In this document: positions 33,001-36,000 of the stretch, one piece after another
Layout: each line of letters opens with the position of its first letter
Position numbering within the stretch: the first letter of the stretch is position 1
NCBI GenBank assembly: GCA_965223705.1
Contig: OZ245015.1
Location: forward strand, 384,001-448,000
Origin: Myxococcota bacterium
GTDB lineage: Bacteria > Myxococcota_A > UBA9160 > UBA6930
DNA length: 64,000 bases
Direction of reading: 5' to 3'
Position numbers: made by a program

Positions 33001-36000
33001 CGATGAACGGGTGGTTTCGACGTACCGCTTTCGCGAGGACGCGGATTTTTATCGCGGTCATTTTCCGGGGAATCCCGTGACGCCGGGCGTCCTGTTGGTG
33101 GAATCCATGGCGCAGGCGGCGGTCATACCCTTGGCGATTCGCGCCTGGAGCGGGGAGCTCGACGAAGCCGATCTAGCCGGCATGACCACGTTGTTCACCG
33201 ATGCCGACGTCGAATTCAGCGGCGTCGTGCGTCCGGGAGAAACGATCCGGATCACCGGGGAGCGTTTGTTCTATCGCCGGCGAAAACTCCGCGCCGCCTG
33301 CGAGATCCGTCTCGAAGACGGCAGCGTGGTGTGCTCCGGCAAGCTCTCGGGCATGGGAGTTTCGTTGTGAGCCGAAGAGTGGTGGTCACGGGGCTCGGAG
33401 TTGTCGCTCCGAACGGCACGAATCTCGGCGAGTTTGAGGCGGCGCTTCGCAAGGGCGAGTCCGGAATCCGTCACAACGACGATATGGAAGAGCACAAGTT
33501 CGCCTGCCAAGTCGCCGGCGTGCCGAGCGGCGTCGAGGAGCTCTGCGCCGACGCGTTCTCGGAAGACCTGCTGCTCGCGATGAACCAGGCGCAGCGCTTC
33601 GCCGCCCTCGCCGGTGTCGAGTGCTGGCAGACGGCGGGCTTCGCGGTGCCAGACGAAGTGGACGACGACGCGGTCGATTGGGACACGGGTGCGGTGTTCG
33701 GGACGGGCATCGGCGGCATGGAGACCATCGCCGAACGCGTCGCTCCGTTGGTGAACGACAAGAAAATCCGGCGGTTGGGGAGCACCGCGGTCGAACAAGT
33801 CATGGCCAGCGGAGTTTCCGCCCGGCTCTCGGGGATCCTGGCGCTCGGAAACCAAGTGACGACGAATTCGAGCGCATGCAGCACCGGCACAGAGGCCATC
33901 ATCGAGGGGCTGTACCGGATTCGCAGCGGGCGTTCGGAGCGAATGTTGTGCGGCGGAGCCGAGGCGGGTACCCGCTACATCTGGGCGGGCTTCGACGCGA
34001 TGCGCGTCTTGGCTCGAAACTGGAACGATCGCCCGGAGGAAGCCTCTCGCCCGATGTCGGCGAGTGCCGGCGGCTTCGTGCCCGGCGCCGGCGCCGGCGC
34101 GGTCCTCCTCGAGAACCTCGACGCCGCGCGGGCTCGGGGTGCAAGGATCTACGCCGAGGTGCTCGGCGGTGCGATCAATTGCGGTGGACACCGCTCCGGC
34201 GGCAGCATGACGGCTCCGAATCCGATCGGCGTTGTCCGCTGCATCCGGTCGGCGCTCGACGACGCGTCGGTGTTGCCCGACGCGATCGACTTAATCAGCG
34301 GACATCTCACGGCGACGAGCGCGGATCCGCGGGAGATCGCCGCCTGGACGGAAGCCCTCGGGCGCTCTCCGGACGATTTCCCGACGCTCTTGTCGACGAA
34401 GTCGCTGATCGGGCACACCCTGGGCGCAGCCGGCGCGATCGAGTCGATCGCCGGCATCTTGATGCTTCACCGAGACTTTGTGCATCCCTCGATCAACTGC
34501 GAGGATATCCACCCGGAGATCGCGCCGTACGAGGCGAGCATCCCCCGCGAGATGCGGGAAGGGGTCGGCCACGACGTCATGGTGAAATCGAGTTTCGGTT
34601 TTGGTGACGTCAACGCGTGTGTGCTGTTCCGCAGGTGGAACGACTGACCGTGTGTGCTGTTCCGCAGGTGGAACGACTGACCGTGTGTGCTGTTCCGCAG
34701 GTGGAACGACTGACCGTGTGTGCTGTTCCGCAGGTGGAACGACTGACTAAATACTAGAGAACTGGAGGACGCGATGTCGGAAGCTCAAATCTTTGAACAG
34801 GTCGTGAAGATTCTTACACCATACGTGAAGGATCAAGACGCCTTGGCCAACGTCAAGAACGAGACGAACATTCTCGAAGACCTGAAAGTCAACTCGGCGC
34901 GTCTGGTCGACGTGGTGCTCGCCTTTGAAGATGAGTTCGACATCGAAATCGCCGATGAGGATGTCGACTCGGTCAACACGGTGGGCGACTGCGTTTCGCT
35001 GATCTCGCGAACAAAGGGTTAGGCCGGACCTTGGAATCCCCGGGCCTGCCGCCGCCCGAGCGCTACCGCCTGAAGCTCCAGTGGTGGGTCTCGCGTCTGT
35101 CGAGCCCGCTGTGGATCCCGTTGTGCGTGGTCGGCTTGCGCTGGATTTTCGGGTGGCGCATCGAAGGCGCTTCTGAAACCAGGCGCGAGTACCGGCGCCT
35201 GCGGCGCGAGAGCGATGCACCAATCCTCGTGTGTGCGAATCATCTCACAAAGATCGATTCGGCCCTGATCGGGTGGGCTCTCGGCGGGGCGTTCTTCTAT
35301 TTGCGCGACTTCGGAGCGCTTCCGTGGAACTTGCCCGCGAGAGAGCACTTCGCGTTTTCCTGGTGGGCGCGCGTCGCGGTCTACTTGCTCAAGTGCATTC
35401 CGATCCAGCGGGGCGGAAGCCGCGAAGACATCGCCCGCGTTCTCACGAAGTTGTCGTGGTTGCTCGGTCGCCGCGAAGTGGGCCTCGTTTTTCCCGAGGG
35501 TGGTCGCAGTCGCACGGGCCGAGTCGATGTCGAGACAGCGGCGTACGGTGTGGGTCGCATCGTCCGCGGGCTGCCGGGTTGTCGTGTCGTCTGCGTCTAT
35601 CTTCGGGGCAACCACCAAGAGAGTTGGTCGGATCTCCCGCGCCGCGGCGATACGTTCTATGCGGCCGTCCAAAGTTTTGAACCGAAATCCGATCGCAACG
35701 GGCTGCGTGCGTCCGTCGATGTTGCAAACCAGATCATGCGGAAGCTCTCTGAGATGGAACGGTCCTATTTCGATGGTCGCGTCTGAGACTTCGCCGTTAC
35801 TCGGCAACGATGTCGTCGACTTGCGCGATCCGGAGACGCCGGCGGCGAACCTGCATCCGCGCTTCGACGATCGTGTCTTTGCGGCGCGCGAGAGAGCGCG
35901 TTGGTCGAACGCCGGGGCTTCCGCTCACGTGCTGCGCTGGACCCACTGGGCGCTGAAAGAGGCGGCCTACAAAGCCGTTCGTCGTCGCGACCCGCACGCG

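Follow-up and report, generated by a model that had tools for sequence, protein, structure and literature searches.

Dozens of unrelated 30-38 base tandem duplications in a Myxococcota genome point to a mechanism that duplicates DNA in pieces of set length

The genome studied here (G000) carries dozens of unrelated tandem duplications whose near-constant unit of 30-38 bases suggests a mechanism that duplicates DNA in pieces of set length. These arrays are real, and they work like the constant-size repeats of Bacillus and the repeats of Borgs but differ from both in defining features. In our best reading, to which we give a probability of roughly 0.35, homologous DNA entered the cell and one of its strands was joined by its end to an untrimmed resident flap of about 33 nt, with slippage and selection acting afterwards. 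More broadly, we tentatively suggest that mutation in this order may include a so far undescribed process, with a protein as its ruler, that joins two homologous molecules out of register and thereby makes the seeds of repeats. Two of the arrays lie in the window, that is, the whole 64-kb stretch of DNA that was analysed.

G000 comprises a contig of 4.54 Mb, with 65% GC and a two-replichore skew, and a further 17 kb. Across the whole genome, TRF at an identity of at least 85% returned 113 rows, 55 of them with periods of 30-42 bp, 45 with periods of 32-36 bp and 21 with a period of 33 bp, while 4 fell at 25-29 bp. The histogram in an earlier note on this DNA therefore holds, with the same values of 55 and 45 and with 110 rows in total and 3 at 25-29 bp. 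An independent, alignment-free scan for exact runs of at least 16 bases found 24 loci at lag 33 and 11 at lag 36, with 4-5 loci at each of lags 32, 34 and 35 and 0-4 at every lag of 18-31 and 37-63. A scored scan over lags 10-60 gave 89 loci, including 69 with units of 30-39 bp (30 of them at 33 bp); these 69, a few of which are ordinary protein repeats, are the basis for the counts of anatomy and position given below. The same scan of G000 detected no loci at 19-23 or 52 bp, and nothing at 21-22 or 43-44 bp. Array units outside genes have a mean length of 33.9 bp (SD 1.9), 18 of 41 being multiples of 3, and the repeat units of G000 have 69% GC. Most arrays are short, with 51/69 rounding to two copies or fewer and 6/69 to four or five. 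After masking, only a small excess was left at lags 32-35, which argues against a large hidden pool of old duplications.

As the earlier note had stated, the units share no sequence: among 19,840 words and spaced dyads, the best (CGCAAG, 9 against 1.0) was found in 9 of the 69 units, and none occurred in most of them. An origin as type IIB restriction fragments was rejected, since no recognition motif is common to the pieces of about 33 bp. GNA/GNNA mini-hairpins and stems showed no excess over GC-matched windows, and an excess of folding energy (p 0.007) came from a comparison with unmatched GC. The arrays are clustered along the chromosome, with 20 gaps below 10 kb where 9.6 were expected (0 of 10,000 shuffles). 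Their reported scarcity in the island-rich part at 3.13-3.82 Mb was borne out (2 loci against 10.5 expected), but not their total absence from it, as the two loci were picked up by the more sensitive scan. The sole reverse transcriptase gene (399 aa; L001:1249-2448, 3.636 Mb) lies in this repeat-poor region, adjoining a transposase gene and with repetitive non-coding sequence in front of it.

In the window, the array at 34616-34747 (+) repeats a 33 bp unit four times without mismatch (TRF score 264) and lies over a gene stop as previously described. Copy 1 contains the last ten codons and the TGA of a FabF-like beta-ketoacyl synthase gene (33379-34647, +, predicted with our own gene caller); the end point of the unit lies 1 base past this TGA, and the junction shows no microhomology. 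The end of the FabF-like gene is single copy in the four best relatives inspected, and an acyl carrier protein gene (34774-35022, +) is located downstream. The second array (1040-1138, +), built of 33 bp units and one shortened unit of 23 bp, lies between convergent stop codons. Here, the TAG of a short predicted gene (773-1048, +; a weak call with a score of 12) falls within the first copy, the stop of the convergent gene (1138-2226, -) adjoins the last copy, and the match stops 1 base past the last TAG. The surroundings of FabF relatives, 607 kb drawn from many genomes, yielded no more than three repeats (36-43 bp) apart from the window's own. No Rfam matches were found within the 64 kb.

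We then related the arrays to gene positions, using 4258 genes from our own unvalidated gene caller. Only 28 of the 69 arrays lie inside genes (59 expected), and the unit length is a multiple of 3 in all 28, in line with the 21 of 21 reported before. The statement that most of the others straddle stop codons was likewise upheld: 33 arrays cover a stop (3.3 expected), made up of 11 over a lone stop (1.6 expected), 14 over a stop and a start (1.3 expected) and 8 over two convergent stops (0.4 expected), against 8 that are purely intergenic (3.9 expected). No array covers only a start (2.4 expected). The surplus at stops relative to intergenic DNA, together with the piling up of array ends at stop codons, means that selection against harm is insufficient on its own to account for these positions. 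Harmlessness alone would favour intergenic sites, and the surplus at gene overlaps suggests instead that an array resists collapse, and is retained, once each of its copies serves a different gene.

It is extremely improbable that the arrays are artefacts of assembly. The reads come from four runs of a single study, which may be the source sample, and were examined over contig positions 1332500-1342499 (five arrays) rather than over 34616-34747; furthermore, in the relative G047, perfect duplications of 40 and 46 bp put conserved genes out of frame, which may itself reflect artefacts. Against this, all 28 in-gene arrays preserve the frame, substitutions distinguish the copies, and the same array anatomy recurs in four other genomes, and it is this combination that makes an artefact unlikely. 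The reads argue the same way, as unitigs break within the three longer arrays of this region, two short unitigs of the 37 bp array reach depths of 15 and 10 in run X3, or 2-4 times the 3-5 of the flanks, and a 33 bp pair is spanned unchanged by a unitig of 5.2 kb. There are few differences between runs over this region, and no collapsed allele was seen among the unitig joints listed, in contigs that drop rare variants. Elsewhere, two patches (L239:7060-7155 and 7972-8051) have short unitigs that carry 7 differences in 80-105 bases at a depth near that of the main genome; these represent either divergent allele patches or another organism.

The junctions fall into several kinds. Among the 45 arrays with an identity of at least 94%, 11 have -1 to 2 extra matching bases and 12 have 5-15, the other 22 finishing in an incomplete copy, whereas randomly simulated breakpoints gave -1 to 2 extra bases in 266/300 cases and 5-15 in 16/300. 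This excess of longer matches (12/45) would be expected of replication slippage, or of an unresolved Okazaki flap, in which a single-strand binding protein sets the size of the loop; such proteins have a 35-nt binding mode. Array-bearing genes are leading-strand genes in 39 of 53 cases, compared with 56% genome-wide, and no match to RecJ was found in G000, both of which would suit slippage, as would the Borg repeats with flanking partial repeats that are ascribed to slippage in passages of PMC9879509. Slippage or a retained flap is nevertheless an unlikely source of the arrays, because it leaves the 11 arrays without microhomology and the matches that end at stop codons unexplained, because Pol I of G000 retains its 5'-3' exonuclease domain, with a second such protein and MutS also present, and because hairpins are not in excess.

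Many arrays are not simple copies. In 31/69, a matching block of 18-32 bp is combined with a dissimilar filler, a structure better accounted for by the involvement of another DNA molecule, or by allelic exchange at a later time, than by copying within a single molecule. The earlier note had proposed a local, length-measuring duplication process filtered by selection; measurement and filtering stand, given the narrow peak, the 28 of 28 arrays in frame and the lack of a motif, but 'local' copying does not account for these 31 arrays, and the unit length is not constant across the order, where G039 peaks at 20-22 bp. In the two proteins compared with their closest homologues (a TsaC-like protein and P0001), the net insertion is 11 codons in both, filler included; against more distant TsaC relatives, the difference for the TsaC-like protein is 14-16. 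The P0001 filler resembles no natural allele. Fillers resembling the adjacent flank numbered 5/31 at p<0.1, and a pooled test with three low-complexity loci excluded found that fillers resemble nearby flanks (combined p 4e-5; 5/23 at p<0.05), so that some represent decayed copies with indels. A fold-back origin of the fillers was rejected (only 2/31 at p<0.1).

At gene ends, the match stops between -1 and +3 of the stop codon in 15 of 28 arrays (p 2.6e-6, in a test devised, like that of synonymous codons below, after the arrays had been inspected). For 14 such stop-edged arrays, identity is 90% before the stop, a figure partly built into their selection, and 47-48% after it, where the null is 41%. 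Within the matched blocks, the non-coding copy differs synonymously from the coding copy in 15/21 codons (14/20 without one double count; 26% expected), with p 2e-5 against neutral decay and 0.005 against mutation of both copies, and differences at gene starts are synonymous in 4/5 codons. This excess depends on the choice of block edges, an inclusive count giving 18/39 (p 0.006 against neutral decay and 0.33 against mutation of both copies), and the signal is therefore suggestive only. In addition, five stop-for-stop swaps between copies were found, and locus L097 of G014 shows the same allele-like pattern as the G000 arrays. The frequent edges at stop codons look as if the copies derived from two alleles.

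Relatives, each sampled over 40-400 kb, vary widely in their number of loci with 29-39 bp units. G014 has 9 in 400 kb (some of them protein repeats), G017 has 3 in 140 kb, G005 has 1 in 100 kb and G006 has 1 in 80 kb. G047 has 5 in 142 kb, or four arrays of 32-35 bp once a 39 bp Lys-rich repeat is dropped, a count that also excludes its frameshifting 40 and 46 bp duplications. G039 has 2 in 400 kb, plus 8 loci at 20-26 bp with a peak at 20-22 bp. Arrays of both G047 and G039 likewise straddle stops and starts. No 29-39 bp loci were detected in G033, G052, G019 or G018 (200 kb each), G050 (160 kb), G030 (140 kb), G009, G004 or G015 (60 kb each), G001 (42 kb) or G021 (40 kb). The distribution of the process across two families is thus patchy, and its ruler differs within one genus (G039 versus G047). 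The ruler is lineage-specific.

A fixed length, the lack of microhomology, allele-like copies and matches ending at stops are most simply explained by a single event, the out-of-register join named at the outset. During natural transformation, an incoming homologous strand would displace the resident strand, which would occasionally be cut some 33 nt past the end of the donor, with a bound protein determining the distance. Rather than being trimmed back, the flap would then be sealed onto the donor end, and replication would fix a tandem duplication of 30-38 bp without microhomology. A clonal donor would leave a perfect repeat, whereas a diverged donor would leave allele-like copies, alike in the coding end and unlike past the stop. 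Slippage between copies subsequently raises their number to 3-5 with the period unchanged; such growth of existing tandem copies is well established. Finally, the arrays themselves show the filter of selection, since within genes only multiples of 3 have survived, while gene ends and overlaps tolerate or retain arrays. There is good support for this growth by slippage, for the selective filter and for a ruler as such, all of which are very probable; the flap length, the ruler protein and the ligation we infer.

Several observations argue for such a join at the donor end: the 11/45 arrays without microhomology, the 31/69 with block and filler, the net insertion of 11 codons, the 15/28 stop-edged matches, the synonymous differences, the stop-for-stop swaps and the G014 locus. 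The clustering of arrays, their avoidance of the island-rich part and the gene content of G000, which has ComEC, YraN, DprA and a gene that we take to be ComM-like together with no RecJ match, point the same way. Weighing against the join, the synonymous excess depends on the block edges and loses significance against mutation of both copies under the inclusive count, the P0001 filler is like no natural allele, pooled fillers resemble nearby flanks, and the 12/45 arrays with 5-15 extra matching bases are also expected of slippage. Diverged donors are required, whereas differences between runs are few and no same-species single-copy allele was found (6 of 10 proteins were in the collection, all as singletons). 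Furthermore, ComEC, YraN and DprA, and the absence of RecJ, are also found in repeat-poor genomes. In passages of PMC13663708, YraN is described as nicking the displaced strand with relaxed specificity, and the resolution of the D-loop is called unknown. Our literature search found no report of short duplications at donor ends.

Clean junctions without microhomology would also result if two cuts about three helical turns apart, by staggered nicks or a double cut of Topo VI, were followed by fill-in and end joining within one cell, with the allele-like differences arising later by recombination with single-copy alleles. We regard this as the main rival, possible but less probable than the join. 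G000 encodes Topo VI, with the A and B genes at contig positions 634890-637812 and 849609-852440, and the A subunit is found in G000 and in 52/61 genomes; besides this, G000 has a single type IA topoisomerase, presumably TopB-like from its motifs, and one GyrA/ParC motif hit, so that its topoisomerase set is unusual and archaea-like. Ku and LigD are present as well. The arginine matching R168 of E. coli topA appears to be intact in the type IA enzyme. Topo VI leaves overhangs of 2 bases, and only 3/11 clean junctions have the 2-base overlap that this would favour. Topo VI becomes a candidate cutter through two lines of published work. Excerpts of PMC13532658 describe SPO11 double cuts from about three helical turns (about 30 bp), with a less frequent class of two turns (about 21 bp), linked to deletions and tandem duplications, and these lengths resemble the 33 bp of G000 and the 20-22 bp of G039. 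Sections of PMC6954433 describe an E. coli topA R168C point mutant that makes head-to-tail duplications from unique sequence independently of repeats, like those of G000. However, the mutant duplications are of 2-19 bp with no fixed length and arise in a laboratory strain, and SPO11 acts in meiotic eukaryotes and gives a 10 bp ladder (same excerpts), whereas G000, with the homologous Topo VI, has a single broad peak (SD 1.9), no such ladder and nothing at 21-22 or 43-44 bp. Paired cuts would also demand a second event for the fillers at 31/69 loci, and Ku does not clearly follow the repeats: it is found in 4/5 rich genomes, has no match in repeat-rich G047 (89% complete), and is present in G052, G018 and G030, which have no 29-39 bp repeat in 200, 200 and 140 kb, respectively.

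A histone could in principle provide the ruler, with breaks falling between dimers. G000 encodes a full-length histone of 70 aa (L095:1483-1695, contig 4129108-4129317, -) that aligns without gaps to the three H3 helices, and its nearest non-Myxococcota Atlas clusters are archaeal histones. The gene lies just upstream of what we take to be lexA-like and folE-like genes, and the tetramer residues of HMf seem to be absent. Histones were found in 51/61 genomes of the order, whereas two of the sampled families lack them entirely. The 20-22 bp peak of G039 occurs in a histone-negative genome. According to passages of PMC11390915, full-length nucleosomal histones are archaeal only, and passages of PMC11390915 and PMC12701072 give a binding length of 30 bp per dimer and steps of 30 bp for HMfB under MNase. 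An archaeal-like histone that sets the unit length is nonetheless very unlikely, as histone-positive G033, G052, G019, G018 and G030 have no arrays in 140-200 kb each, and as a necessary ruler it was rejected, because G047 has four 32-35 bp arrays in 142 kb without a histone match (family f8, 0/3). Since Ku and the histone are both unmatched in G047, neither appears to be needed.

More generally, rich and poor genomes were not set apart by whether they have Ku, MutS, Topo VI, type IA topoisomerase, RecJ, ComEC, YraN, ExoVII or DprA. RecJ_OB was matched in 0/18 genomes of the order, though in 10/14 control genomes. CRISPR spacer acquisition by Cas1-Cas2 uses spacers whose length range resembles the G000 units; neo-arrays made by Cas1 were rejected, as Cas1 was found in 0/1 in G000, in 1/16 genomes and in none of the five repeat-rich ones, with no common repeat flanking spacers and no foreign spacer.

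The closest known counterparts are the constant-size repeats of Subirana and Messeguer, which like the G000 arrays combine many arrays and one unit length with unlike sequences, and which passages of PMC8161180 report from Bacillus and other bacteria, with an origin described there as unknown and 20-21 nt equated with two helical turns. Their length of 20-21 nt resembles the mode of G039 and not that of G000. As characterised in those passages, they have units of 20-21 or 52 nt in at least 4 copies and form families with common short motifs, whereas the G000 arrays have units of 30-38 bp, mostly in about two copies, with no common motif and placed on gene ends. Borg repeats, as portrayed in passages of PMC9879509, likewise have unique sequences, are in frame within ORFs, can begin inside the final part of an ORF and have partial flanking copies; they belong to archaeal extrachromosomal elements and are perfect, A-rich and of at least 3 units (examples of 18-36 nt), in contrast to the bacterial chromosome, 69% GC units, single narrow length peak and often imperfect copies of G000. 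In pneumococcus, transformation merodiploids show that DNA uptake can create tandem duplications, as proposed here, but these span 100-900 kb and require pre-existing repeats (excerpts of PMC3784515). No description of a 30-38 bp class turned up in the literature searched, a body that includes neither the 2020 survey on which PMC8161180 draws nor any supplements.

The origin of bacterial tandem repeats from unique sequence is called unknown in sections of PMC6954433, and in G000 dozens of loci display them at the stage of birth, with two copies. If the proposed join is correct, the process would separate overlapping gene ends and create new intergenic DNA, could be how the constant-size repeats of other bacteria are born, and would have a ruler that measures about 33 nt in three lineages, or four, and about 21 nt in another. 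The length can be measured and differs between the congeners G039 and G047, and the stop-codon edge is a signature that any mechanism must explain, so that the question can be tested through a few repair proteins of two close genomes.

Other observations were made in the relatives. The perfect duplications of G047, of 46 and 40 bp (L187:292-386 and L191:2473-2552, respectively), each frameshift a gene, the two being permease-like and glycerol-3-phosphate-dehydrogenase-like; these are either fresh harmful events or assembly errors. Tandem units of 45-50 bp in G018 (L218, L222) and G012 (L129/L234) have a common TTCGCC/TACGGCTCA-like motif and are a separate, sequence-related repeat family. Finally, G001 and G002, of the same genus as G000, have about half its genome size, with 48-49% GC in the stretches read compared with 65%.
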